This document shows positions 3,725 to 18,297 of a DNA stretch of 64,000 nt, piece by piece (position 1 is the first letter of the stretch; every line of letters begins with the position of its first letter). This stretch comes from Bacteriovoracia bacterium. Lineage in GTDB: Bacteria > Bdellovibrionota > UBA1018 > JBFWNL01. A model generated the notes under the pieces. That model saw only the letters and a program-made list of their open reading frames with translations, made no database searches and was not told where the DNA came from. The stretch spans positions 224,001 through 288,000 of the forward strand of contig JBFWNL010000004.1 in assembly GCA_050251055.1 (NCBI GenBank), read 5' to 3'. The translations under genes and the position numbers were made by a program.

Positions 3725-4492
3725 ATGGAAGGGAAACCGCTAACGGAGAACTGCAAACGTGTTTACGATTCGAAAGAGCATGTCTGTTTTGGCATCAGTC
3801 CCTTTAATAGCTATTTTTCCGAACGGCGTCTTCGCGACCTGGCGCATTGGGGACGCTCCCATTTCCAGTCGATGCATTTTTTTGTGCCAGATGTACCCGC
3901 CGCTTACACGCTTGAAGCTTTAGGCTACACGCCTGAGCGTGCCGCCTGGAAAGCTCGCCGCCAGGCAAATTGGCTAAGAAACAAAATTATCCGTTCCCTC
4001 ATCAGCCTCAGTTTCACTCACCACGAATCAGAAAAAATGGTCTTGGATTGGGAAAAACTAGTCAGCATTTCCCGGTTTCAAGAAATTTATAGGGAGATTC
4101 AAGGTCTTTTTCGTAAAGATTCCGCCTTTCGAGGTGCGTGTATCGAAGCTTCGCATTGGATTTTAGAAAAGCGAGTTGCGGATACTTTAGCTCTTACTGA
4201 TGAAGCTCTTTTACGAGCTGTTGAGTATTTTCTTGCCGAGATCCCCCTCTTCCTTGATGCAGCAAGCATTTTAAATCAAAAAGCATCGGTCTTCGCTTAC
4301 CACCAGAGTATTCCATTTCTCGAAAATCTTTATCGAAACCAGTTCTTCTGCCAGGTCCCATCCGAGCGACAGGGCTATGTCATTCTTGCGGCAAAAAAAG
4401 AAAATGAAATAAGGGACGCAAATTCACTTCACTTGCAGCCGCCTATCTCTGAATCAGGGAATTATGAAGTGTCTCTTCCATCTGAAGATTAG
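3725..4492 (+). CDS. tRNA-dependent cyclodipeptide synthase (CDPS), NYH subfamily
   Basis: HVCFGISPFNSYFS (HxxxGxS, catalytic Ser), YFLAEIPLF (YxxxExP), FAYH; RBS GGGGAGG. Confidence 0.92.
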   Translation: MEGKPLTENCKRVYDSKEHVCFGISPFNSYFSERRLRDLAHWGRSHFQSMHFFVPDVPAAYTLEALGYTPERAAWKARRQANWLRNKIIRSLISLSFTHHESEKMVLDWEKLVSISRFQEIYREIQGLFRKDSAFRGACIEASHWILEKRVADTLALTDEALLRAVEYFLAEIPLFLDAASILNQKASVFAYHQSIPFLENLYRNQFFCQVPSERQGYVILAAKKENEIRDANSLHLQPPISESGNYEVSLPSED

Positions 4493-4727: not shown

Positions 4728-5081
4728 TCAAGCGGCGCGCCGCGTTTCCATCCGGCGGCAAGACTCTGCACATTTGCGACAGATATCGGCACAGCGCTGC
4801 ATTTCTTTGTCATCGGTGAATTTTGCGCAATCTTCAGCGCATGCATCACATAAACGCGTGCAAGTCCGGCAGGCATCCGCATAGAAATTTGAGTTGCGAA
4901 GCATAAAGTTCGCACTTGTTTGGCAAATCTCGGCACAATCCAATAAAAGACTAATGTGTTTCGTTTCAGCGTGACGTCCACCCTTATCGAGACAGTGCGG
5001 CAAAATTTCGTTACAAACCGCGTGGCAGCCAAGACAATTATCGATACATTCTTGAAAATCTTTTTGTGACATATGAGGCAT
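4728..5081 (-). CDS. Four-helix-bundle copper storage protein (Csp3/DUF326-like)
   Basis: Repeated CxxxCxxC motifs, LLLDCAEICQTSANFMLRNS, no signal peptide. Confidence 0.9.
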   Translation of the reverse strand: MPHMSQKDFQECIDNCLGCHAVCNEILPHCLDKGGRHAETKHISLLLDCAEICQTSANFMLRNSNFYADACRTCTRLCDACAEDCAKFTDDKEMQRCADICRKCAESCRRMETRRAA

Positions 5082-5159: not shown

Positions 5160-5176
5160 TGCAATTTCAATACCAA
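5160..5176 (-). promoter_or_regulatory. Putative sigma54 -24/-12 promoter for the copper storage gene
   Basis: Minus strand TTGGTATTGAAATTGCA, GG-N10-GC, about 80 nt upstream of the start. Confidence 0.55.
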
Positions 5177-5350: not shown

Positions 5351-7543
5351 TCAAAGTAAAGCGACTTTCTGTTTTTGCGCTTGTTCAACACTTCCTTGCG
5401 ATTCGAAGCATGCGATCACTTGATTGAGATCCTTCCGAACAATTCTTTCGATCCAGTACATTCCTTCGGGATACTGTTCTTTAAAATGCTGTTTTTCATA
5501 TCCCGTGTTTAAAACGATTCGTTTGAATCCATAATTGTCGTAAAGATCGCGCGCATGCTCTTCGCCCTTCTCACCAAACCGTAGACGAGAATCAACTACG
5601 ATGACTTTATTTTTATCGAGTAGATGAAGATGTTCTCGCATTTCAGCAAAACTTCGATAGAAAAGAAGATTCTTTTTCTTTTCGCGGGCTAATTTTCTGA
5701 GATGGATTACATGAAGGTCGTCGTCGTCAATTACAACTCCATCAAAAGGTTGCGAAACCTCTAAGCGATTCACCGAGAAATCTATTTTTTCAAGCAGGAT
5801 TTTCGGCAAAAGCTTGATTCCTTTTCGATCACATTCATCCAAGAGACGTGAATTACCATAATTATGAGTCAGAAGAATTGATCGCTTTTCTAAACCGAAG
5901 CGTTCAATCGTATCTGTTCCTGTAATTTTTGCATCGCCGAGATCATAGTCCATGAAGACAAAATCCGATTGAGGAAAATTTGTCTCTTTAGCCCATGATT
6001 GAAAGCCCTCAAGGTCATGGAAAACAGTAGTTTCTATTTTGGGCGCCTGTCTTTTAATAAGATCATCGACCTTCTTTGCGAACTCTCTATCGTTTTCGAC
6101 AATAATTACCCGATGAAATCCATTCAAGCTCGTCGTTCCAACAAAAGAGCGTCGTGGCGCGTATTCCAAAAAAGCCAGGCGAATGGTTGTTCCTAGCCCT
6201 TCTTTAGATTCAATAGAAAGCTCGCCATCATCTTTTCGGACAATTTCAATCGCTTTGCTAAGACCTTTGCCTCGTCCTGCTCCACCTTTCGTTGAAAATC
6301 CGTACTGCTTTACGTCCTCTAAGAGTCCTTCGGGAATTCCGCAACCGGTATCTTCAATGAATATAGCGGCCAAATCGTTCGTTCTTTTCGTTGAGAGAGT
6401 GACACTTCCAGTTTCTTGGATGGATTCAACTGCATTATTCACAAGATTGGAAATAGCGGTTCCAAGTTCAACGGGATCTACCTTCACAAAAAGCCCAAGA
6501 TCGCTGGCTAAAAAATCAAAATGAATTTGCAGCCGATCCTGATGGCTGTACTCAATAGCTTTCAGTTCAACAAGATGGGCGATAAAAGCATCGAGTTGCA
6601 AAACGAAACTGCGTTCGACTTCATCAAGGCTCTCGGCTCCTACTTTCTGGAGCTGCTGCATTTTGACAGAAATATCGCTCGCCGCTTTCTGAAGGATGAG
6701 AAGATCATCTTCACCGATTTTTGAGCGAAGATTTTGGATCGAATGGAGCAAAATGCTCGTGTAAGATTTCAAATCATGAGCCAGTTGAGCCGCAAGCTTT
6801 CCGCGTTCCTCTTCGACCGACTGATTTAAAAGAGCTGATTGCTGCCGTTCAATACGATCCTGAAGTAAATCGAATTTATCTTTAATACTTTTTGTTTCGA
6901 CGAGCCTTTCTGATTCATAAGCGATCTTACTGTTCGAGTCGTTTCGGTCGAAATGCTCAATATAGTCACGCAGGTTTTCCAGAGGTTGGCTGATTCTTCT
7001 AAGTACAGCTTTCAAACGAAGGAGGAGAATCAAAAATAGGGCGATTGAGATAATGAGAGTCGTAAAAAACGTGTACCTAATGACTTGTTCCCGGATTGAA
7101 TTTGGAAAAGCCACTTTCACCGTAAAGTTTTCGGGACGATCTGGATACACAGAGAAAACTGACTGTTGAACGACGTAAGGAGATAAAAGAACATCGAGAT
7201 AACCCGTTTCCTTTAAATCTCGAATATCTCCACTTGCAAGTTCGGAAACAACCAACGGTCGAATCGCGTCGCCCGTGATGGCAATAGAGAGAACATCAGA
7301 GGTTTCGAGCGTTTTCGAAAGAATACCTCGAATCTCAATTTCATCGCCGATTTGAATTTTGGGCTTAATGATGGCTACCAATTGTTGCGTAAGAAGCCTG
7401 ATTTTACTGTGCTCACTATTTGAAAAGGCAACCGTAAGCACGCATGCGATCAAAGGCACTACTAGAAGAATCGAATAAACGAGAATGCCAAAAGAGGAAG
7501 AGCGAAATAAAAGTTGAAGAGTTTGGTGTTTATCTTTTCTCAT
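5351..7543 (-). CDS. Membrane hybrid histidine kinase with two C-terminal receiver domains
   Basis: Two TM segments around a periplasmic domain; H-box AHDLKS, N-box NLVNNA, DTGCG, GRGKGL; receivers IIVEND..MDYDL and VIDDD..VVDSRL. Confidence 0.9.
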   Translation of the reverse strand: MRKDKHQTLQLLFRSSSFGILVYSILLVVPLIACVLTVAFSNSEHSKIRLLTQQLVAIIKPKIQIGDEIEIRGILSKTLETSDVLSIAITGDAIRPLVVSELASGDIRDLKETGYLDVLLSPYVVQQSVFSVYPDRPENFTVKVAFPNSIREQVIRYTFFTTLIISIALFLILLLRLKAVLRRISQPLENLRDYIEHFDRNDSNSKIAYESERLVETKSIKDKFDLLQDRIERQQSALLNQSVEEERGKLAAQLAHDLKSYTSILLHSIQNLRSKIGEDDLLILQKAASDISVKMQQLQKVGAESLDEVERSFVLQLDAFIAHLVELKAIEYSHQDRLQIHFDFLASDLGLFVKVDPVELGTAISNLVNNAVESIQETGSVTLSTKRTNDLAAIFIEDTGCGIPEGLLEDVKQYGFSTKGGAGRGKGLSKAIEIVRKDDGELSIESKEGLGTTIRLAFLEYAPRRSFVGTTSLNGFHRVIIVENDREFAKKVDDLIKRQAPKIETTVFHDLEGFQSWAKETNFPQSDFVFMDYDLGDAKITGTDTIERFGLEKRSILLTHNYGNSRLLDECDRKGIKLLPKILLEKIDFSVNRLEVSQPFDGVVIDDDDLHVIHLRKLAREKKKNLLFYRSFAEMREHLHLLDKNKVIVVDSRLRFGEKGEEHARDLYDNYGFKRIVLNTGYEKQHFKEQYPEGMYWIERIVRKDLNQVIACFESQGSVEQAQKQKVALL

Positions 7544-8838
7544 TTTATTTCCTTTGCCATAGCCAAAGGACGTTCCAGCGAAATCGTTACGAATGAAAAC
7601 AGAAGGGACAGTATAACAACGGATACAAATGCTTCTTTTATAGATGGAGCTCCGTTTCTAAGCGTACTGATATAAAGACTGTATAATCCGACCCAGAGAT
7701 AACCGGGAATATTTTGAAAACTTAAGGCAGTCGCATAGTCTTGTCGTTTTACTTCTCCCATCAATTGATTCATCGACATATTTTGAATTGCGGACGTAGC
7801 AGTATGAAACAATGCGCCAAAAACAAAAATATAAGTGATCTGCACAAATACCGGAGTGTTCCCATAAAGGGCCAAGTACCCAAGGCTCATAACAAGAGTG
7901 AGCCCATAAAAAATGAGAAGATACTGTCTTGGAGTTACACACCGAATGAGCACTGGCAATAAATGTCCTTTTAAAATCCATCCGAACGCCGAGTAGCCGA
8001 GCATAAATGCCGCCATGAACGACCACTGAATGAGTTCAGCGCTTTGGTTATGCTCTCGACCTAACGATAGGGGGAGATAGCCAGCAATTATGACAGTCAT
8101 CATCCAGAACGAAAGATTGTAGATCGTCGCAATTTTTGCGCGAGGTGCTAAAAAGGTCACTTTAAAAATGTCTTTAAGAGGCGACACATGGAGCTGTTTG
8201 TCGCGATCTCCGAGTTGAAGATAATCCCGCCACAACGTCACAATACACGAAGCGTAGAGAGCGATGCCTATGAGAAATGTATGAGGAAGCCACTGCTTCT
8301 GTTCGAACACCCATGCCAAAGCGAAAGCCGCGATAACAGCAATCGTCGTAAAATATTTTCCGTAGTTTTGACTCGTAGTCAAACTCGTTGCAGCTACCTT
8401 CTCGTGATCATCATTCAAGCAACGCACCTTTATCGCATCCTGGTAAAAGGCTTCAATGGAACCAGAGCTAAGGGGCTTTGCTATTCCAATGAGAATTCCA
8501 TGAGCAATGAAAAGAATTCGCGCCATCGCACCATCGAAAACAAGCGCTACATACACACAGGCGAGCCCACTCATCACGAGTAACAAACTCAAAATGATAG
8601 AAGGAATTCGTCCAATGCGATCAGATATATAACCGCAAGGAACCTCTAGTAAGCCATTCAGTGTGAATTCAATAAGAGTAACGAGAGCTACGGTGTCTGC
8701 GGGAACCCCAAAGGAAAGCGCGAGGACACCAACAATTACTCGAAACAAAACGGAGTTGAATTGTACCGCCGCTGCATAGAGCGCGCGAAAGACTCCGAGG
8801 CGAATCAAAATGTCATGCACTGACATTTCTTGTTTCAT
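7540..8838 (-). CDS. MFS transporter (putative exporter)
   Basis: LEVPCGYISDRIGR (MFS motif A), SGSIEAFYQD, about 12 hydrophobic segments. Confidence 0.88.
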   Translation of the reverse strand: MKQEMSVHDILIRLGVFRALYAAAVQFNSVLFRVIVGVLALSFGVPADTVALVTLIEFTLNGLLEVPCGYISDRIGRIPSIILSLLLVMSGLACVYVALVFDGAMARILFIAHGILIGIAKPLSSGSIEAFYQDAIKVRCLNDDHEKVAATSLTTSQNYGKYFTTIAVIAAFALAWVFEQKQWLPHTFLIGIALYASCIVTLWRDYLQLGDRDKQLHVSPLKDIFKVTFLAPRAKIATIYNLSFWMMTVIIAGYLPLSLGREHNQSAELIQWSFMAAFMLGYSAFGWILKGHLLPVLIRCVTPRQYLLIFYGLTLVMSLGYLALYGNTPVFVQITYIFVFGALFHTATSAIQNMSMNQLMGEVKRQDYATALSFQNIPGYLWVGLYSLYISTLRNGAPSIKEAFVSVVILSLLFSFVTISLERPLAMAKEIK

Positions 8839-9689
8839 CGTGCGCTCACCCTCGACGAAGGAGATTTCGAGTCTAACAACTCGTCTCGAATGATATGAAT
8901 AATGTCTGTGATATGCTCATCAAACCTGAGAAGGCCGCGCCCGCAAATAGTTTCGTAATCTTTTTGGAAAGTCGACGTGAATCTTTCAAGAATTCGATAA
9001 GCGCCTTGGTCATACTTTCGATCAATCTTCTTACTTCTTAAAATTCGAAGAGCTAAGCCAAGCATACACGCTTGAGCAAAGGCACCATGATAAATGCCAA
9101 TCAGGGGTCGATCAATATCCCGAATCGCAGAGTATCTTGTTTCATCCCAAGGCTGGTCAAAGATTTCTTGCTCGTCGTGCGTGGTAATTACGATGTTTAA
9201 ATAATGATGTCCAAGCTCATGGACTAAAATTTCAGCCCACTTTACGGGGCAATCACTATCCATCCGATAGAGAATTTGGCCAAACGTTTGTGGATCTGAA
9301 GCAGATTCGAAGGGATCATCTATTGTGGTCTGCGCCAAACGAGGCTGAATGGCTTTAACAATTTTAAAGTATTCAGGCCACGTAGACGCGATCAGACTGA
9401 TTGCTTCCTGATAGATTTTTTCTTTTTCCGAGTAGATTTCACTTTCATGAGATCGGAAAATATCATTTCCAGTGACTAGCTTCCTGCGCTTTTGATCACG
9501 CAAGAATAGCTCACCCCACTGTTTAGATCTATTGAGATCTTCAGCCGAAAAATAACACGAGGACACAATCGGTAGACTTAATTTCGAAAGGTCTATTTTT
9601 GAAATTTCTGGCCGGGAAGAGAGAATCGCACGAACTCCCTCTTCCCGCAGAAACTCGACATAGGAACTGATCATTCCCAAGTCAAACAT
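8835..9689 (-). CDS. HEXXH-motif protein, aKG-HExxH peptide-modifying family
   Basis: ILVHELGHHYL plus YSAIRDIDRPLIGIYHGAF (variant of SPWRxDxRPxxGxxH); probable start ATG 9689 (MFDLG), not 9815. Confidence 0.8.
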   Translation of the reverse strand: MFDLGMISSYVEFLREEGVRAILSSRPEISKIDLSKLSLPIVSSCYFSAEDLNRSKQWGELFLRDQKRRKLVTGNDIFRSHESEIYSEKEKIYQEAISLIASTWPEYFKIVKAIQPRLAQTTIDDPFESASDPQTFGQILYRMDSDCPVKWAEILVHELGHHYLNIVITTHDEQEIFDQPWDETRYSAIRDIDRPLIGIYHGAFAQACMLGLALRILRSKKIDRKYDQGAYRILERFTSTFQKDYETICGRGLLRFDEHITDIIHIIRDELLDSKSPSSRVSAR

Positions 9690-9700
9690 CTTCGAAACTC

Positions 9701-9778
9701 TTAGTAACTTGCGCGAGCTTCGCCGATTAGTTTGTTCCTGAGAATCGCGAGATTGAACGAGCGCTTTCTGTTTTTCAT
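9701..9778 (-). CDS. Hidden 25-aa peptide MKNRKRSFNLAILRNKLIGEARASY, putative RiPP/pheromone precursor
   Basis: AAAGGAGG RBS (9787-9794) 8 nt before ATG; fits between the SBP stop and the HExxH start. Confidence 0.75.
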   Translation of the reverse strand: MKNRKRSFNLAILRNKLIGEARASY

Positions 9779-9811
9779 GGCTTTTGCCTCCTTTCATTTG
9801 ATTGACGTTTT

Positions 9812-11308
9812 TCATTTACGCACCAGATTCGCAATTTGAACGTCCTGGTACGAAAAGTCCCAAAACTTCACACTCATATTTTCCGAGTTCTTCACGGATA
9901 GCCCTCGGCGGTACCAGGTGGTGAACACGGGATAGAACAAAGGAATCGCAGGAATATCTGCAAAGAAAGTATCTTCCATTTGGTGTAGCACTCTGAGCTG
10001 GTGATCTTTCGCCGTTTGGTTCTCATAATCAATGAGCAAACGATTGAGCGTAGGACTGTAATAGCCAGAAAACTTTTCAATTATTCTTCCGAGGTAGCCA
10101 TCAAAGGTCGTAGATGGGTCAAAATTAATCGGAGAATCACCTTTCAGGATCATATGGAGATGACCCTCGCGAAATCCGCGAAGTACATCGTTAAATGGTA
10201 GAAACTGAACCTGGAGGTTTAGGCCGATGTCTTTGAACCGACCAACAAGGTATTTTTCAACCGCCATGTTCCCTTTAAATTTTTCTCGCGCGCCTAAAAC
10301 GACATTGCGTTCTTGAAGCGTCGTATTTTTTTCGATTAAAGCTCTCGCCATTTCAAGATCGATAAGATGACGTTTCTCGCGATGGCCCACATATCCACGC
10401 GGAATCATGCCGCCAGCGGGAATATCTTCTCCTCCTGCATATTCATGGAAAGCAATCGGATCGATGACGCTTGCGACAGCAAGCCGATTTTCCTTTTTCC
10501 GAAATATGCCGTGTTTGAAAGAAAAGACTAGAGCGTAAGTTCCAGCAATTTTCTGACTGTAAGAAAGTCCTTTCGGTAAAACCGATCGATTAACCTGTGA
10601 TTCAACGTCCGTAATCGTATCGAGCTCTTCCTTCAAGAACTTATTGATGGCTGTTTCAGAGTCTAATTTTTGGTAAATGATCTTTTGGAACTTCGCTCGC
10701 GCATCAAATCGTTCAGCGATGATTTGATCATCTCCAATTCGCACGATCTTGTAAGGACCGGTTCCCAAATAGTTCCCGTCCATCTTTTTAACGATGCAGC
10801 CCTTAGCGCTTGCCAATTTTTTCATTAGCAAAGGATAGTTCTTATTTTGAATCCGAATAACAAATCGAGAGTCATCGAGTGTTTGAAATCCATCACATGA
10901 TGTGCGTTGTATGCAGCCCCCAAGAGCCTTGAATTGTGAAAGGATTTCGTTTTTGTTTTTGAAAGCTTCAAGAATTGAATTTAGGACGTCTTGCGATCGA
11001 ACTGGAGAACCGTCATGAAACCGCTTGTTTCTATCAATCTCGAATTCAATCTCATTCGTCTCACGGCGAATTGTCCAACGAGAAGCAACCTCGGGGATGG
11101 GCGAAAGACTTTCATCCACGCCAACCAGGTGCTCAAATACATTATCAATCACCTTATTCGCATTGATTTCGTTCCCGCGCTTAAGCTCAAGATCGGGAAT
11201 CGCCGTAATCGGCACTCTAAGTACCGTGTTCGATGACACGGAATCGTTTTCCTGCGTACAGGCAGAAAATATTCCTATTGCTAAAGAAAAAAACAGAAGT
11301 AAGCGCAT
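9812..11308 (-). CDS. Orphan family-5 (Opp/Dpp-like) solute-binding lipoprotein
   Basis: Lipobox FSAC; FHDGSPVRSQDV, GTGPYKI, PAIPLFY; no permease or ATPase genes nearby. Confidence 0.88.
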   Translation of the reverse strand: MRLLLFFSLAIGIFSACTQENDSVSSNTVLRVPITAIPDLELKRGNEINANKVIDNVFEHLVGVDESLSPIPEVASRWTIRRETNEIEFEIDRNKRFHDGSPVRSQDVLNSILEAFKNKNEILSQFKALGGCIQRTSCDGFQTLDDSRFVIRIQNKNYPLLMKKLASAKGCIVKKMDGNYLGTGPYKIVRIGDDQIIAERFDARAKFQKIIYQKLDSETAINKFLKEELDTITDVESQVNRSVLPKGLSYSQKIAGTYALVFSFKHGIFRKKENRLAVASVIDPIAFHEYAGGEDIPAGGMIPRGYVGHREKRHLIDLEMARALIEKNTTLQERNVVLGAREKFKGNMAVEKYLVGRFKDIGLNLQVQFLPFNDVLRGFREGHLHMILKGDSPINFDPSTTFDGYLGRIIEKFSGYYSPTLNRLLIDYENQTAKDHQLRVLHQMEDTFFADIPAIPLFYPVFTTWYRRGLSVKNSENMSVKFWDFSYQDVQIANLVRK

Positions 11309-11311
11309 AAG

Positions 11312-11530
11312 TTATTCGCCCACCTCTTTGAAATTACATTTGAGTTGACCCCACTTTTCCAAAAGCTGATCGCCTCGACGGCAGGCGAGATTGAGTACAG
11401 TTTCACAATACTCAGGATCGTTGGTTAAGTTGGCACGAACCTGCTCAATCGTTGAAATAATGGAATGAAGATCAGCTTGAAAATCATGAATCATGTCTTC
11501 TGCTGAGAGTTTATTTTTCGCCATCATCAC
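11312..11530 (-). CDS. 72-aa stand-alone HisKA/DHp-like protein, putative phosphotransfer or connector
   Basis: EDMIHDFQADLHSIISTIE resembles an H-box helix; translationally coupled to the regulator. Confidence 0.55.
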   Translation of the reverse strand: MMMAKNKLSAEDMIHDFQADLHSIISTIEQVRANLTNDPEYCETVLNLACRRGDQLLEKWGQLKCNFKEVGE

Positions 11531-12897
11531 AACTCGGCCTCCTTCAATTCATCGAGAAGACTGGTAACCTTCTTTTGTGAATAACCTAAGTGCCGCATGA
11601 GAGGACGAATGGGACGATCCTTCCCAAGCTTTCTCCGGAAATGATCTGCAACTTCTTTCTCCAGTTCAGCGAGAAACGCTTTAAGACCAACCTCTTCGAC
11701 GTACTTGATCTGTCGTTCGGTCAGGAGATTGTAAGCATGCTTGCCCGGATATGAGTTTGTTGCAATTTTATGAGGAAGATCTTCAACAGAAAATACAGGC
11801 TTTTTTGTTTTCGCTTTGGACTTCCAAAATTCAAAAAATTCTCTCTCGTTACCCGGCCAATCGTATTCGAGCAGCGCTTTCTTAGCACTTGGTCGGATCG
11901 CCATTCCACGGCCTTCTCCAAAATTCTTCTGCACATGATTAAGGAGAAGTTCAATATCCTGGCGACGTTCTTTGAGCGGTTTGAACTTTACCGTGACCCC
12001 CGAGATGCGATTAAAGAAATCTTCACGAAATTGTTTAGCAGAAATTTTTTCGTGTAATTCTTCGCATGTCGCCGTGATGAGCTTGAAATCAGAATAAAGT
12101 CGCTCGTTTGATCCAACAGGTGAGAAATGTCCGTTTGCCAATGGAACAAGAAGAGTGTGTTGCATACGAGTGCCAATCGTTCCGATTTCGTCAATAAAGA
12201 GCGTTCCTTGATCAGCCTGCGCAATTTTTCCGATTCGCTTTTTATGTGCTCCCGTGAAAGCGCCGTCGACATGCCCAAGCAATTCGGATTGCAGCAATGT
12301 ATCGGACAAACTATTCGCGTTGATTTCGACAAAGCGATCCTTATGACCGTGCCATCCTTCATGCAATATTTCGGCTAAAACGCTTTTGCCTACGCCGGAA
12401 GGACCCGTGATGAGAATAGGTAACTTTTTAATTCCCATGCTCTCGACAAGAATATCAAACTGCTGAAGATGATCGGGGTCTTGGGTAATCATCTTTTGAG
12501 CAATGAGTTTACGAAGTCTCGTCTTCTGTGATGAACCACGATAGTTCAAAAGAATTTCATCAACGGCTGTGGCCTTAAAAGGTTTCGTTAAATAGTCATC
12601 GCATTCTTTTCCGTATCCTTCTTCCACATAAGCTTCTTCGCGATGGCCCGAAAGAATAACGCTGTAAACGCCCTTCTTCTTGAGAAGCGGAATCAGATCG
12701 AAACCGGCTCTTCGTTCATCGAGATCAAGATCAACGAACGAAAGATCGAACTGTCCGTTTGAAATTTTGTCGAGAGCCTGAGCCTTGGAGGCAGCCTGTT
12801 GAATTTCGTGACCTTGATTAGAAAGCTGCTTCGCAAGATTGTGTCGATGCAGATCATCATCTTCGACAACTAAAATTTTTAACGACGATTGTTTCAC
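11527..12897 (-). CDS. NtrC-family sigma54-dependent response regulator
   Basis: Receiver (VVEDD, FVDLDL, KPF), Walker A GPSGVGKS, intact GAFTGA, FIDEIG, WPGNERE. Confidence 0.93.
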   Translation of the reverse strand: MKQSSLKILVVEDDDLHRHNLAKQLSNQGHEIQQAASKAQALDKISNGQFDLSFVDLDLDERRAGFDLIPLLKKKGVYSVILSGHREEAYVEEGYGKECDDYLTKPFKATAVDEILLNYRGSSQKTRLRKLIAQKMITQDPDHLQQFDILVESMGIKKLPILITGPSGVGKSVLAEILHEGWHGHKDRFVEINANSLSDTLLQSELLGHVDGAFTGAHKKRIGKIAQADQGTLFIDEIGTIGTRMQHTLLVPLANGHFSPVGSNERLYSDFKLITATCEELHEKISAKQFREDFFNRISGVTVKFKPLKERRQDIELLLNHVQKNFGEGRGMAIRPSAKKALLEYDWPGNEREFFEFWKSKAKTKKPVFSVEDLPHKIATNSYPGKHAYNLLTERQIKYVEEVGLKAFLAELEKEVADHFRRKLGKDRPIRPLMRHLGYSQKKVTSLLDELKEAEL

Positions 12898-12958: not shown

Positions 12959-12992
12959 TTCGTATCACTACACGTATTACTAGTGATACGAA
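12959..12992. promoter_or_regulatory. Palindromic operator / enhancer candidate
   Basis: TTCGTATCACTA-N10-TAGTGATACGAA perfect 12-bp inverted repeat with a third CGTATTACTA half-site inside. Confidence 0.7.
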
Positions 12993-13451: not shown

Positions 13452-13988
13452 GTGAAAAATAATGATCAATTTCATAACTCGAAAATAAACCAAACAGACA
13501 TTCCATGGAAAGACGCGAACGGAAATCTAAAACCAGATAAAGAAATTAAAAAAATGGCAGCCCAGTGGAAAGCGTCTACTTGGGAGGCTTTTTTGGCAGA
13601 CACTGGAATGTCAGAAAACATTGGAAGTGATACTGAAAACGAAGTTTTGATAGCAGATACTGCGGGCTACGAAAGATTTTCTGCGGATGAATCCCTTAGC
13701 AGTCTTTTATCCGACATCGAATCTTTCCCAAGAGTCGCGAAAAGCTTAAAGAAAGCAATCTCGAAACTTTCTCCTCGGCAAAAGGAACTCGTCGGGCTGT
13801 ATTATTGGGAAGGTCTCTCACAGATGCAAATTGCTGCCACTCTTGGGATCACCCAGCAGACAGTAAGCATCCAACTCGTCCGAGCCATTCAGAGACTGCG
13901 CATCGAGATATTTCTCGGAATCAAATCTGACTCGCCGGCGCCTGAAAAATCTCAATCCGAGCATTCTGTCTGTATGCAAATTGGATAA
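13452..13988 (+). CDS. Sigma-70 region 4-like HTH protein
   Basis: LSPRQKELVGLYYWEGLSQMQIAATLGITQQTVSIQLVRAIQRLR; RBS AAGGAG. Confidence 0.85.
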   Translation: MKNNDQFHNSKINQTDIPWKDANGNLKPDKEIKKMAAQWKASTWEAFLADTGMSENIGSDTENEVLIADTAGYERFSADESLSSLLSDIESFPRVAKSLKKAISKLSPRQKELVGLYYWEGLSQMQIAATLGITQQTVSIQLVRAIQRLRIEIFLGIKSDSPAPEKSQSEHSVCMQIG

Positions 13989-14264: not shown

Positions 14265-14648
14265 GTGCGGATGTCTTTACCCTGGGCGGAGGAGATCGCA
14301 ACAGACCCCAGAAAAATCCAAGAGCTGATCGAAAATAAAGCTTTGGAAGATTGGTATTCAGAACATTCAGGAGAGTCAAAAGTGCGGAAAGTCGACGATT
14401 CTACATTCAGTTTCCTTTCGAATGAAAAACGCAGAATTCGAAAATTCATTTCCAAGCTTTCGGATGTGGAGCAAGTCATCGTGTATTTACGCTATTGGGA
14501 AAATCTCATGACGATCGAAATCGCATCCGTTGTAGGACTTTCTGAAAATAAAATTCATGACCTTTTAGAGCGTGCCATAAAGAAACTTAGAATTTTTTAC
14601 ATTCAGGAATTGAGCAGAGTGCAAGCCACAGCGCTTGCCTGCGTATGA
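14265..14648 (+). CDS. Second sigma-70 region 4-like HTH protein
   Basis: LSDVEQVIVYLRYWENLMTIEIASVVGLSENKIHDLLERAIKKLR. Confidence 0.8.
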   Translation: MRMSLPWAEEIATDPRKIQELIENKALEDWYSEHSGESKVRKVDDSTFSFLSNEKRRIRKFISKLSDVEQVIVYLRYWENLMTIEIASVVGLSENKIHDLLERAIKKLRIFYIQELSRVQATALACV

Positions 14649-15077: not shown

Positions 15078-15380
15078 ATGACCAAGTCCACATACGGTTG
15101 GGTTTTTATGATCGGATTTATCGGAATGCTTTCACTGATGCTCTTAAGTGAGCCTGCGATGGCGTTTGGCTTTGAAAGTAAAATGCAAAATCTCACAGGC
15201 CAGCTCATCAATACGGTGCTGCCTTTAATGTCGATTCTAGGTCTTGTGTACGCAGCGATTCTCGCGCTTTCGGGCGATGCCGCTGCCAAAGCAAAAATCA
15301 TTACGGTGATCGCTGTCTCTGTGGTCGGGTTTCTCGCTCCCGCCATCATTCAGTGGTTACAACGCGCGACGGGTAACTAA
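15078..15380 (+). CDS. VirB2/TrbC-like pilin
   Basis: Signal peptide ending PAMA, then two hydrophobic helices; lies before VirB3/VirB4-like genes. Confidence 0.75.
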   Translation: MTKSTYGWVFMIGFIGMLSLMLLSEPAMAFGFESKMQNLTGQLINTVLPLMSILGLVYAAILALSGDAAAKAKIITVIAVSVVGFLAPAIIQWLQRATGN

Positions 15381-15698
15381 ATGGAAGAACTTCGTAGTTC
15401 GACAATTCATCGAAATCTCGATTCCAAAATCAAGATCGTGGGCATGGAGGTCCACGATCTCCTTTTGGTTTTGATTTTAGCAGCGACCATGAATCTTCTT
15501 TTTGGAAGAACGAGTTTCGCTTTTATTTTTGTGATCGTTCTTCCAGGAATTTTGGGACTCACACTTTATTTTGTGAAACGAAATAAGCCCGAAGGCTTTT
15601 TATCAGACTACGTTCGCTATCATCTTTCGCCCGGTTGGTTTTCGGCAGGAATGAATGTCAAAGATTTCGAAACTAGACCAAGGAAAATTTATTCATGA
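15381..15698 (+). CDS. VirB3-like membrane protein
   Basis: Two TMs, KRNKPEGFL; between pilin and VirB4. Confidence 0.65.
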   Translation: MEELRSSTIHRNLDSKIKIVGMEVHDLLLVLILAATMNLLFGRTSFAFIFVIVLPGILGLTLYFVKRNKPEGFLSDYVRYHLSPGWFSAGMNVKDFETRPRKIYS

Positions 15699-15868
15699 AC
15701 GAAATGATTCCAACGAAATTTAAGTTCGATGGTTTGAAAACAAAGTGCTTCGAGATCCTTTCCTTTGTGCCCATCGTGCTTTGTTTTCTAGGTTGGCTCG
15801 CTCTCGTCATCGGCTTCTTTATGGAGGCCTCGAAATTCGTAGAACTTCAGCAGGGACTTCCGCGATGA
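15695..15868 (+). CDS. 57-aa single-TM protein (below ORF-track cutoff)
   Basis: MNEMIPTKF...ILSFVPIVLCFLGWLALVIGFF...; ATGA overlaps at both ends. Confidence 0.55.
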   Translation: MNEMIPTKFKFDGLKTKCFEILSFVPIVLCFLGWLALVIGFFMEASKFVELQQGLPR

Positions 15869-18297
15869 ATTTTACATCACGCGCCTTAGCGGACCGGATT
15901 CCGCTTTGGCATTTTGAAGGGAATTCCGCTGTATTTTCGGACGGCTCACTCGGAGCAGGCTTCAAACTCAAAGGTTTTGATGCCAGTGTTTCCGGCGTTG
16001 AAAGTTTTAATCAATTTGCTTTTGCGCTTGAAAACCTCATTCATACGGCTAGGGAAGGTTTGACGTTACAGCTTTATTACAAGGTGGGTCATGATGTCTC
16101 ACTTCTTCTCCATAAACACGAGGAGCTAACAGGATCAAAAGAAGGGGCCTATCAAGAAGTGGCGTACGCTCGTTTTGAAGATCTTCAAGCGAGAGCCAAG
16201 CAAGGAAAATTCTTTCAGGCGGATATTTATCTTTTTATTCGCAGTGAGGGCCAAAAATATCAGAAGAAGAAATTTTGGGAGGCTGAAAAGAAGTTTATTG
16301 CGCTGACTCAAAAGCAATTTTTAGAACAAAAAGAAAAATTTGAGCGCGATCTAAAACAAATGGAATCGTCTCTGACTCAGGCTGGCTTAGAACCGATCGC
16401 TCTGAATGCGCGAACATGGGTCCGTCTTTTGTTTGATTCGCTGAATCCGGGCCGCGCGGATAAAATTGGATATCCTCAGTTCAACTTCGAGGATGAAGTT
16501 TTTCCTCAACCCATTTCGCAGCAAATTCTTTTGTCGGATGTGATCGTCAACGAAGAAAGCGTTCAGATTAACGAAGAGCATTTAAAGTGCTTGAGTCTCA
16601 AAACTCTTCCCGAGGCGAAGTCTACGATTGGCATGGTGCTTCCACTTCTGGAATTGCCCTTTGCGTATGAAATCTCCCAAACCATCAAAATTTGCGATCA
16701 GAAGAGAGAAATCGATAAACTCCACGTTCAAAGGCGTGTCACGCATTCCTTTGCGAGTGGTTCCGGAAAAATGAGTGATTTGGAGTCCGAATCAAAACTC
16801 GGACACATCGAGGAACTTATTCGTGAGCTGTTAGAAGGCTCCGAAAAAATTGTGGCTTCGAGTGTCAATGTTCTCATCAAAACCAAAGATCGAAATGAGC
16901 TTCAGGAGCGATCCGATGAAGTCTTGAAAGCCTTTCGGTCTGTGAATCAAAGCGAAGGAATCGCAGAAACCCTTGGAACCTTCGATGGTGTTTTAGCATC
17001 GCTTCCAGGCTTGGGGCTCACATTCAGAGATAAGAAAATGAAATCAAGTAACGCGACACACTTGATGTCGCTCTACACCTCATGGGGCGGCAATGCGCGT
17101 CCCATCTGCCTGCTTCCAAATCGCGACGGCGAACTGGTGCGCATCGACCCCTTTGCTTCGAGTCTCCCGAACTGGAATGGCCTTATCTTTGGAGGAAGTG
17201 GTGCGGGAAAAAGTTTTACGATTCTGCATCTCATGCTCATGTTCTATGGGCAAAGGCCAACGCCAAAAATTGTTTGGATTGATAATGGAGCGTCTTCTCA
17301 AAAGCTTCTCGAAGTTTTGGACGGAGAATTCGTTGATCTCAATATTAAATCATCCATCCGAATTAACCCATTTGATTTGGAGCCAGGGCTCGATGCACCA
17401 ACTCCTTCTAAAATCAAACTGATCTTAGCAGTCCTCGAAAGTATTCTGAAAGAAGGTCCGAATACGGGACTTCCCAAGCGGAACAAAGCGCTTTTAGAAG
17501 AAGCTATTTTTCAAATCTATGAAATGAAAAGAGGAGACGTACCGACACTTTCAGATTTGAAAGTCTTTCTGAAGGCTCATTCCAATCTTGAAATGAAAGC
17601 CTATGCGGATACCCTCTTTTCTTGGACGGGAGAAACCGCCTACGGACAAATGCTCGATGGAAAAACGAATATTGCTCTTCAAAAGGATCTGATCACAGTT
17701 GAAACGAAAGGGCTCGATGATTATCCCGATTTGCAAAATGTTTTTCTTTTGCTTTTTACGGATTATATCAAATCAGAAGCATCCCGAGATAAAAGTAGGC
17801 CCTATCTTCTCATTCTCGATGAGGCCTGGAAAATGTTTCAAACGCCAAGTGGACTTCAATTTACGATTGAAGCTTACCGGACGTTTCGAAAATTCTTTGG
17901 AGGAATTTGGTGCATTAGCCAAAATTACAAAGACTTTCTTTTCAATCAGGAAATTAGAAATGCCATTTTTCCGAATACGACGAGCACCTTTGTTTTAAAA
18001 CAGAGAGCGATTGACTGGAAAGATTTTGCGGAAACGCTTCAACTCAATGAAGCAGAGATTGAGGCGATTAAAAGTATCCAGGTAAAAAAAGGGGAATATT
18101 CGGAAATCTTCTTTATGCAAGATACCGGACGATCGATTCTCAGAATCGTTCCTGATCCCTTGGGCTACTATATTTGCACGAGTGATCCCGTCGATAAGAG
18201 TCTTATCGAAGAGCAAAGACAGAAAAATCCAGAGCTTTCACAGCTTGAAGTCTTAAAGCTTCTTGCCAACAAACGAAGGGAACATCTTTATCAATAA
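15865..18297 (+). CDS. virB4: VirB4/TraC-family conjugative ATPase
   Basis: Walker A GGSGAGKS, Walker B LILDEAW, RTFRKF, ISQ; probable start ATG 15865. Confidence 0.92.
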   Translation: MNFTSRALADRIPLWHFEGNSAVFSDGSLGAGFKLKGFDASVSGVESFNQFAFALENLIHTAREGLTLQLYYKVGHDVSLLLHKHEELTGSKEGAYQEVAYARFEDLQARAKQGKFFQADIYLFIRSEGQKYQKKKFWEAEKKFIALTQKQFLEQKEKFERDLKQMESSLTQAGLEPIALNARTWVRLLFDSLNPGRADKIGYPQFNFEDEVFPQPISQQILLSDVIVNEESVQINEEHLKCLSLKTLPEAKSTIGMVLPLLELPFAYEISQTIKICDQKREIDKLHVQRRVTHSFASGSGKMSDLESESKLGHIEELIRELLEGSEKIVASSVNVLIKTKDRNELQERSDEVLKAFRSVNQSEGIAETLGTFDGVLASLPGLGLTFRDKKMKSSNATHLMSLYTSWGGNARPICLLPNRDGELVRIDPFASSLPNWNGLIFGGSGAGKSFTILHLMLMFYGQRPTPKIVWIDNGASSQKLLEVLDGEFVDLNIKSSIRINPFDLEPGLDAPTPSKIKLILAVLESILKEGPNTGLPKRNKALLEEAIFQIYEMKRGDVPTLSDLKVFLKAHSNLEMKAYADTLFSWTGETAYGQMLDGKTNIALQKDLITVETKGLDDYPDLQNVFLLLFTDYIKSEASRDKSRPYLLILDEAWKMFQTPSGLQFTIEAYRTFRKFFGGIWCISQNYKDFLFNQEIRNAIFPNTTSTFVLKQRAIDWKDFAETLQLNEAEIEAIKSIQVKKGEYSEIFFMQDTGRSILRIVPDPLGYYICTSDPVDKSLIEEQRQKNPELSQLEVLKLLANKRREHLYQ

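Follow-up and report, generated by a model that had tools for sequence, protein, structure and literature searches.

The DNA analyzed here, a stretch of 64,000 nucleotides (nt) on contig JBFWNL010000004.1 of a Bacteriovoracia bacterium (hereafter called the window), carries a gene for a protein with a HExxH motif. In another frame, beneath the listed start of this gene, lies an open reading frame (ORF) of 25 codons. The locus raises the question whether this small ORF is a gene at all and, if so, whether its peptide is the substrate of the HExxH protein and what becomes of the product. We find that the small ORF recurs upstream of homologous HExxH genes and most likely encodes a precursor peptide of the adjacent enzyme. 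The features concerned are given below.

9787..9794, minus strand: Shine-Dalgarno sequence AAAGGAGG, followed by an 8-nt spacer (9786–9779) before the small-gene ATG.
9701..9778, minus strand: small gene of 25 sense codons plus TAA, putatively encoding the precursor (substrate) on which the HExxH enzyme acts.
9690..9815, minus strand: mis-called 42-codon N-terminal extension of the HExxH ORF, non-coding in that frame, as judged from alignment, homolog lengths, a stop codon in locus L050 and structural matches.
8835..9689, minus strand: aKG-HExxH-type peptide oxygenase, 284 residues, HELGH at residues 157–161; true start ATG 9689.

Read on the minus strand, the small gene begins with ATG at 9778–9776 and stops with TAA at 9703–9701, and 11 nt (9700–9690) separate this stop from the HExxH ATG (9689–9687). 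The ORF listing has it as a 25-residue ORF (9701..9778, minus strand) that overlaps, in another frame, a 326-residue long form of the HExxH ORF (8835..9815, minus strand). A preliminary description of the window had reported the same succession of Shine-Dalgarno sequence, 8 nt, ATG and 25-residue ORF in another frame, ending 11 nt before ATG 9689, and all of it is as described. The description had further proposed that the HExxH start is mis-called and that the 42-residue extension hides a small gene; the homolog starts and the conservation of the small ORF bear out both proposals.

We found 13 homologs of the HExxH protein, 12 of which are near full length (257–297 residues) and were aligned; P0012 is a partial match of 166 residues. 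Not one of the 12 aligns through the 42-residue extension. Four of them start exactly at the position of ATG 9689, another four start 5 to 18 residues further in, and P0006, P0011, P0013 and P0014 have unrelated short N-terminal extensions of ~5 to 22 residues. The extension frame is interrupted in the closest relative (L050, genome G139) by a stop 7 codons before the ATG. The structural neighbors of the 326-residue form in the Atlas align from residues 34–39 onward only. Since homolog starts, the L050 stop and the starts of the structural matches agree, we assign the HExxH gene to 8835..9689, with a product of 284 residues. The public protein set lists the 326-residue form for the source genome (P0001). 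The proteins of the L050 gene cassette (see below) are 65–85% identical to those of the window, and P0002, which shares its first residues with the L050 HExxH gene, is 67% identical to the window HExxH protein. A split HExxH gene in L050 was considered and rejected: the gap at 7579–7679 is a run of N, which mimics two pieces in the genome search.

By its length alone, the small ORF is not beyond chance, because 12 kb of the window contain 196 ORFs of at least 20 residues. It is the conservation across related loci that identifies it as a real gene, and on this comparison we regard its status as nearly certain. HExxH homologs were gathered from species-representative genomes, metagenome contigs and extended flanks. 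In 14 of 18 loci (HExxH ORFs of 258–326 residues), a small ORF with a ribosome-binding site and a common motif lies directly upstream of the HExxH gene. The search for small ORFs upstream of homologous HExxH genes, which the preliminary description had put forward as a check, has therefore brought out a conserved motif. The positive loci are the window, L050, L006, L007, L009, L010, L011, L012, L020/L049, L021/L047, L022/L048, L015/L045, L016/L046 and L053; L015/L045, L016/L046 and L053 are much more divergent. L013, a metagenome match with 29% identity, was left out of the locus counts. Purine-rich sites comparable to AAAGGAGG precede the small ORF in the related loci, and its distance to the HExxH start ranges from ~8 to ~50 nt.

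Codon comparisons indicate that selection on the small ORF acts at the protein level. Over the last 18 codons, the window and L050 differ by six synonymous changes and one conservative Arg/Lys change. Between the window and L007, 9 codons are identical, 8 differ synonymously and 7 are replaced, with 2, 6 and 10 differences at codon positions 1, 2 and 3, respectively. A profile built from 11 of the peptides and run against 1.84 billion representative proteins gave 10 matches with E ≤ 1e-3 (P0015–P0024), all of them proteins of 29–70 residues that bear the motif and whose source names are either absent or 'hypothetical protein'. The data suggest that four of these ten are perhaps encoded on the same contigs as HExxH homologs. 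No Pfam or NCBIfam model covers the window peptide, and none matches P0015–P0024 above its cut-off. In a six-frame translation of the 3.77-Mb genome, the motif pattern matches 23 times, four times with a stop within 12 residues (the window ORF included), and this search revealed no second copy of the motif gene.

The motif, h-[NDS]-L-x-I-h-x-[DN]-x-h-h-[GSA]-E-x-R-[AGV]-S-x, was derived from 23 instances that occur in 22 distinct sequences. With the invariant Glu as anchor, it is gap-free from −12 to +4, and its most constrained positions are as follows.

Position −11: N in 17 of 23 instances.
Position −10: L in 23 of 23.
Position −8: I in 19 of 23.
Position −5: D or N in 22 of 23.
Position 0: E in 23 of 23.
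Position +2: R in 23 of 23.
Position +3: A, V or G in 15, 5 and 3 of 23, respectively.
Position +4: S in 19 of 23.

The window peptide ends in A-R-A-S-Y. At the position of its terminal Tyr, the 23 instances have M (5), F (5), Y (4), G (3), A (2), E (2), V (1) and N (1). Thirteen of the instances stop at +5 and the others run on for up to ~10 residues, which leaves 3 to 10 codons or more between E-x-R and the stop codon; the part after the conserved block contains no Cys. At the other end, the peptides vary in both length and charge, the N-terminus being basic in the clade of the window and acidic in most others. This distribution of conserved and variable parts does not support the anatomy proposed in the preliminary description, which had divided the peptide into a basic leader and a short C-terminal core, GEARASY, with a terminal Tyr and a tail that varies as in pherotypes. 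The basic N-terminus is not the conserved part, whereas GEARASY contains the invariant E-x-R and is more conserved than any other part of the peptide. The Tyr is not conserved, and the last 18 residues are common to the window and L050 peptides save for the one Arg/Lys exchange; tails differ between distant clades only. In 12 of 12 sequences, the hydrophobic periodicity of the conserved block is closer to that of a strand than to that of a helix, a weak indication that the block could be bound by strand addition. The h-[NDS]-L-x-I box, situated 10–12 residues before the invariant Glu, is the conserved, recognition-like element.

The HExxH protein matches the NCBIfam family TIGR04267 ('aKG-HExxH-type peptide beta-hydroxylase') with 58.7 bits against a cut-off of 40, in agreement with the earlier suggestion of an Fe(II)/2-oxoglutarate-type enzyme. 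All 15 members of the subfamily alignment pass this cut-off as well. In a genome-wide search with TIGR04267 (59.8 bits), the HExxH gene is the only match in the genome. Pfam assigns the 284-residue protein to no family, with nothing meaningful even at E ≤ 10. Eight residues (H157, E158, H161, S131, G137, R194, P195 and H201) are each kept in 41–44 of 44 aligned family sequences, distant members included, and the window protein has all eight. In the Atlas, the protein reaches a feature score of 0.96 to clusters named aKG-HExxH, and its model (pLDDT 0.63) superimposes on aKG-HExxH clusters with TM-scores of 0.68 by query and 0.73 by cluster. The structural neighbors comprise stand-alone and radical-SAM-fused family members, including cyclophane maturases. 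No PDB chain has a sequence match to the subfamily profile at E ≤ 1. Since the whole 284-residue protein aligns to family members, there is no separate domain of the type that recognizes precursor peptides (RRE).

Enzymes of the aKG-HExxH family (TIGR04267/IPR026337) are described as having a zincin-like fold and using Fe(II) and 2-oxoglutarate (PMC12636437) and have been known as peptide oxygenases since 2024–2026 only. The reactions reported include β-hydroxylation of His, Asp, Phe, Gln and Pro (PMC13060819). PflC and PosC are also reported to cut the backbone oxidatively, immediately ahead of a conserved C-terminal A-R-M-D; this cleavage leaves an amide and a keto-acyl fragment, and its first position must be Ala or Gly (PMC12636437). 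Every characterized member that these two papers describe acts on a ribosomal peptide from its own cluster (PMC12636437, PMC13060819), and authors in the field state that the reactions of the family are not yet predictable (PMC13060819). In the peptides described here, the small residue after the Arg is a candidate site of cleavage or hydroxylation, and [DN] at −5 or [NDS] at −11 are candidates for β-hydroxylation. The invariant Glu or Arg themselves are further candidate sites.

One of the divergent loci is instructive. Locus L053 (genome G024) encodes, at 7253–7465 on the plus strand, a 70-residue precursor with two full motif copies in tandem, 48 nt upstream of a 283-residue HExxH gene. A tblastn search with the window cassette proteins found no substrate-binding protein (SBP), major facilitator superfamily (MFS) transporter or kinase around this pair. 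Pfam analysis of three flanking ORFs identified a B12-binding protein and a JmjC-type protein and gave no family for the other; the JmjC/cupin-type oxygenase gene lies near the precursor at 9365–10588 on the minus strand. Since the pair occurs here by itself, we take peptide and enzyme to be the constant core of the system. The peptide types also follow the enzyme tree. The small gene has the properties of a precursor of a peptide made by ribosomes and modified after its translation (RiPP): it is small, co-oriented with and adjacent to a gene for a peptide-modifying enzyme and conserved together with it in the 14 loci, and it has a motif of fixed spacing with invariant L, E and R, as well as a two-copy form (P0023). 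As homologous loci have this small ORF too, the most economical reading is that the HExxH enzyme acts on its peptide as a substrate, and we consider this highly probable. Of the earlier view that the peptide is both substrate and signal, it is the first half that locus conservation supports, whereas the second half stems from gene context.

This context is a cassette of genes that all lie on the minus strand, are tightly packed and overlap by 4 nt at three junctions. Their order is sigma-54 response regulator, 72-residue protein, SBP_bac_5 lipoprotein, peptide, HExxH enzyme, MFS transporter and hybrid kinase. In addition to the peptide and enzyme genes listed above, the cassette contains the following.

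11527..12897, minus strand: sigma-54-dependent response regulator (REC and AAA+; PF00072, PF00158), first gene of the cassette.
11312..11530, minus strand: 72-residue protein with one invariant His (alignment; low-confidence Atlas model), possibly a stand-alone DHp-like phosphotransfer protein.
9812..11308, minus strand: orphan SBP_bac_5 (OppA/DppA-type) lipoprotein, 498 residues, lipobox FSAC (PF00496, E 1e-31), candidate receptor of the product.
7540..8838, minus strand: MFS transporter, 432 residues (PF07690), overlapping the HExxH gene by 4 nt, candidate exporter.
5351..7543, minus strand: hybrid sensor histidine kinase, 730 residues, with two transmembrane segments, H-box, HATPase_c and a receiver-like C-terminal region.

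The same gene order is found in the window, L050, L006, L007, L010, L012 and L047. In L048 and L049, the order is SBP, peptide, HExxH, MFS and kinase; in L045, it is peptide, HExxH, MFS, amidohydrolase, SBP_bac_5 and kinase; and in L046, it is peptide, HExxH, SBP_bac_5 and a 1002-residue kinase. Of the 12 loci whose flanks are long enough, 11 have SBP_bac_5 and kinase along with the pair, through these rearrangements and down to ~30% enzyme identity; L009 and L011 are too short for this count. The sigma-54 regulator is conserved in L006, L007, L010, L012, L047 and L050, and the MFS and kinase positions are conserved in the related loci. Three of the rearranged loci have peculiarities of their own. 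The 1002-residue kinase of L046 (1193–4201, minus strand; G038) has an N-terminal part that is weakly MFS-like by tblastn. The amidohydrolase gene (PF01979) between the MFS and SBP genes of L045 (4251–5537, minus strand; G053) and a gene for a trypsin-like protease that lies upstream of the SBP gene of L048 (4106–5185, plus strand; G165) might each encode a processing enzyme.

The cassette kinases have two transmembrane segments around a periplasmic loop of ~120 residues. Signal peptides are present in the cassette SBPs, and those of the window's clade also have a lipobox. The window cassette contains no ABC permease gene, the nearest BPD_transp_1 gene being outside the window. Among the 11 SBP_bac_5 matches of the genome, the cassette SBP is the second weakest. 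SBP_bac_5 proteins are described as co-sensors elsewhere, namely CBP, which works with the hybrid kinase ChiS, and DppA, which works with Tap (PMC8050422). The 72-residue protein belongs to no Pfam family (nothing meaningful at E ≤ 10), and its low-confidence Atlas model aligns to HisKA or HisKA_3 kinase hairpins in 8 of 10 rows. This His-containing protein and the receiver-like region of the kinase together suggest a phosphorelay, in which the small protein could be a His carrier; we regard this as a lead only.

A candidate operator lies in front of the cassette.

12973..12990: palindrome of the type CGTATY-N6-RATACG, 76–93 nt upstream of the regulator gene.

The palindrome is perfect and is followed by a further GATAC half-site. 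Its pattern matches three times in the window (two of the matches are the two strands of this one site), with 0.17 expected, and L050, L006 and L007 have the palindrome at the corresponding place upstream of their regulator genes. It may be the operator of the cassette. Scans for sigma-70 promoters and terminators showed no enrichment.

Further genes lie on either side of the cassette. Downstream lies a gene for a Cys-rich DUF326 protein of 117 residues (4728–5081, minus strand), with a sigma-54-like −24/−12 element, TGGTAT-N5-TTGCA (two mismatches), ~80 nt upstream of it at 5160–5175 on the minus strand. We rejected this element as a candidate, since neither the DUF326 gene nor the site is conserved downstream of the cassette in L050 and since the sigma-54 consensus is not enriched in the window (20 matches, 26 expected). 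A gene for a tRNA-dependent cyclodipeptide synthase (3725–4492, plus strand; PF16715 E 3e-63, TIGR04539 242.7 bits) lies ~860 nt past the end of the kinase gene on the opposite strand and represents a second small-peptide pathway beside the cassette. On the other side are conjugation-type genes (15078–18297, plus strand) for a TrbC/VirB2 pilin (PF04956) and an 850-residue TraC/VirB4-like ATPase (PF19044, PF11130), preceded by genes for two small proteins that consist of sigma-70 region 4 only (13452–13988 and 14265–14648). The cassette may thus border an integrative conjugative element.

Taken together, the explanation that we favor, and consider reasonably likely, is that the small gene encodes a RiPP-type precursor of the adjacent HExxH oxygenase, which would be its sole tailoring enzyme, and that the product is exported and sensed. 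The enzyme would recognize the strand-like h-[NDS]-L-x-I box, and its target would lie in the conserved C-terminal part: E-x-R-[AGV]-S itself, a position adjoining it, or the [DN] at −5. By analogy with characterized family members, the reaction would be β-hydroxylation, oxidative backbone cleavage or both; cleavage would yield a short fragment from the C-terminus or an amidated C-terminus. The co-transcribed MFS transporter would carry the product out of the cell. In the periplasm, the orphan OppA-like lipoprotein would bind it and modulate the hybrid kinase, from whose receiver the signal would pass, perhaps via the 72-residue His protein, to the sigma-54 activator. For export of the product and its sensing by the linked SBP and kinase, which we deduce from gene context, we put the chances at about even.

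Several observations weigh against this proposal. Four of the 18 loci (G007, G174, G189 and G138; HExxH ORFs of 268–325 residues) have no such peptide, and the motif pattern matched in none of the 21 loci L024–L044, a set that consists of G174, G189 and G138 and otherwise mostly of HExxH proteins of 420–500 residues. The 14 positive loci are not independent, several being close relatives and L010–L012 near-identical. The invariant Arg is preceded by A, S, V, I or L and followed by A, V or G; neither flanking position follows the small-residue rule of PosC uniformly. A cleavage step, proposed by analogy only, would be needed, because MFS transporters are unusual exporters of peptides of ~25 residues, and the window cassette contains no gene for a protease or for leader removal. 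The genome has canonical Opp/Dpp-type SBP–permease operons elsewhere, so that the SBP might serve an importer and not the kinase. Finally, a search with the sigma-54 consensus (up to two mismatches) found no sigma-54 promoter in or before the cassette.

Our proposal can be sharpened into a full pheromone circuit of Gram-negative bacteria of the predatory type (Bdellovibrionota), in which the HExxH enzyme, as sole maturase of the ~25-residue precursor, cuts at E-x-R-[AGV] in the manner of PosC, the MFS transporter exports a C-terminal fragment of 3–10 residues that is possibly α-keto-acylated or hydroxylated, the orphan SBP captures this fragment and docks on the hybrid kinase, and the kinase feeds a four-step phosphorelay from the kinase His via the receiver Asp and the His of the 72-residue DHp-like protein to the Asp of the sigma-54 activator. 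In this complete form, which leans on the analogy with PosC, the circuit is unlikely. The peptide might also be the substrate of the enzyme and yet give rise to a bioactive RiPP (antimicrobial, predation-related or metal-binding) instead of a cell–cell signal. SBP, kinase and regulator would then provide immunity, re-uptake or a means for an external cue to induce the cluster, comparable to lantibiotic clusters with a two-component system of their own. All evidence for the peptide–enzyme pair applies equally to such a product, and the L053 pair without SBP, MFS transporter and kinase agrees with it, as do the amidohydrolase of L045 and the trypsin-like protease of L048, which are of the kind found in biosynthetic clusters, and the origin of the loci from Bdellovibrionota, two of them in records titled Bacteriovoracaceae. 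However, SBP_bac_5 and kinase stay with the pair through the rearrangements, in nearly all loci with sufficient flanks, the cassette has no immunity-type ABC transporter, and the peptide is very short, with 3–10 residues after the conserved block. We therefore consider a bioactive RiPP a serious but rather improbable alternative. Much less probable still is that the peptides sensed by SBP and kinase are foreign, coming for example from prey or the environment, while the HExxH-modified peptide remains in the cell or periplasm as a modulator (a competitor or anti-signal). The 11 SBP_bac_5 genes and several Opp/Dpp-type operons do make peptide uptake and sensing prominent in this genome, and the sigma-54 scan revealed no promoter for autoinduction, but a non-exported modulator would leave the tightly coupled, conserved MFS gene unexplained, and nothing favors foreign-peptide sensing over the simpler loop.

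Two further explanations deny the peptide its role as a substrate. In some arrest peptides, such as TnaC and SecM, conserved residues lie near the C-terminus. The small ORF, which is likewise short with conserved residues near its C-terminus and which stops just before the HExxH start, could be a regulatory upstream ORF that controls the HExxH, MFS and kinase genes, the enzyme having another substrate. Yet both the distance from E-x-R to the stop codon and the distance to the HExxH start vary between loci, the 70-residue precursor with the whole motif twice fits multi-core precursors and not an arrest peptide, and the enzyme family acts on adjacent ribosomal peptides. A regulatory ORF is thus very improbable. 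That the 25 codons are merely non-coding sequence between the SBP and HExxH genes has next to no probability left, despite the many ORFs of similar length nearby: the amino acid motif is kept, with synonymous change, at enzyme identities down to ~30%, a ribosome-binding site is present in every locus, and the profile search retrieved only small proteins of the same type. With motif conservation, synonymous excess and profile matches all contradicting it, we rejected the chance ORF.

The precursor of an exported and sensed peptide that we propose can be compared with several known systems. The PflA/PflC and PosA/PosC systems of Pseudomonas also combine a stand-alone aKG-HExxH enzyme with a ribosomal precursor encoded beside it, and their clusters, as far as described, likewise have transporter genes, no protease gene and an N-terminal precursor part for recognition (PMC12636437). 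PflA and PosA have a conserved, Arg-containing motif, A-R-M-D, at their very C-terminus (PMC12636437), where the peptides here have E-x-R-[AGV]-S-x and the window peptide A-R-A-S-Y. In contrast, PflA and PosA are described as having ~90 residues, a leader that resembles nitrile hydratase and a run of Gln (PMC12636437), whereas the peptides here have 23–38 residues and no Gln run. The Pfl/Pos clusters add an MNIO-nitroreductase and a GNAT protein (PMC12636437), whereas here the HExxH enzyme is the sole tailoring enzyme and is accompanied by SBP, hybrid kinase and sigma-54 regulator. The likeness is drawn from the descriptions of these systems. The ChlH-type aKG-HExxH enzymes that are fused to radical SAM proteins, BpmH (biphenomycin) and PesO (nitrilobacillin) belong to the same family and share the HExxH metal site, with side-chain β-hydroxylation as the reported reaction (PMC12636437, PMC13060819). 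They are described as working after or beside other maturases (radical SAM, MNIO; PMC12636437, PMC13060819), whereas no other maturase is present here.

The conserved box of the peptide resembles the FNLD box of class I lanthipeptides, where, as here, F-N-L-(D/E/A/S) is situated about a dozen residues before the modified part (PMC5294574); the likeness may be convergent. The two systems differ in that the locus here has a different enzyme class, a Gram-negative host and only 3–10 residues after the conserved block. The cassette contains no LanB or LanC genes, and a genome search with Lant_dehydr_N gave no match, its control also matching in no genome. Nisin-type systems, which are autoinduced through NisRK, share with the cassette that the peptide product is encoded beside a two-component system.

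On the sensing side, CBP–ChiS of Vibrio, LuxP–LuxQ and TorT–TorS are described as combining, as here, an SBP with a loop-bearing membrane kinase without an adjoining cognate permease (PMC8050422). CBP is a member of the same Pfam family as the cassette SBP (SBP_bac_5) and ChiS is a hybrid kinase, and the ligands of the three systems are sugars, autoinducer-2 or trimethylamine N-oxide (PMC8050422). In the literature, we found no SBP_bac_5–kinase pair for a self-made ribosomal peptide. In the PrgZ-type pheromone systems of Gram-positive bacteria, an OppA-family lipoprotein does capture a short self-made peptide, which is imported and acts on a cytoplasmic receptor. The locus here differs from these in that a membrane kinase and a putative phosphorelay are encoded and in its Gram-negative Bdellovibrionota host.

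The locus would be a minimal system for study, as one enzyme, one precursor of 23–38 residues and three invariant residues should be simple to reconstitute. If the product is indeed sensed by SBP, kinase, phosphorelay and sigma-54 regulator, it would represent a rare Gram-negative signaling loop based on a ribosomal peptide. Bdellovibrionota is a phylum known for predation, and in that case cell–cell or predator–prey signaling by peptides would become directly testable in it. We found no paper on the cassette, although the similarity network of PMC12636437 may hold the subfamily as an uncharacterized cluster. The recently defined enzyme family and the placement of a precursor beside an aKG-HExxH enzyme are already known. 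What is new is a precursor family without model or name, which standard genome mining would miss because it is masked by a wrong start codon in the source genome's annotation, a HExxH enzyme as the sole maturase of a 23–38-residue peptide, and the association of this pair, in Bdellovibrionota, with genes for an orphan OppA-like SBP, MFS pump, hybrid kinase and sigma-54 regulator.

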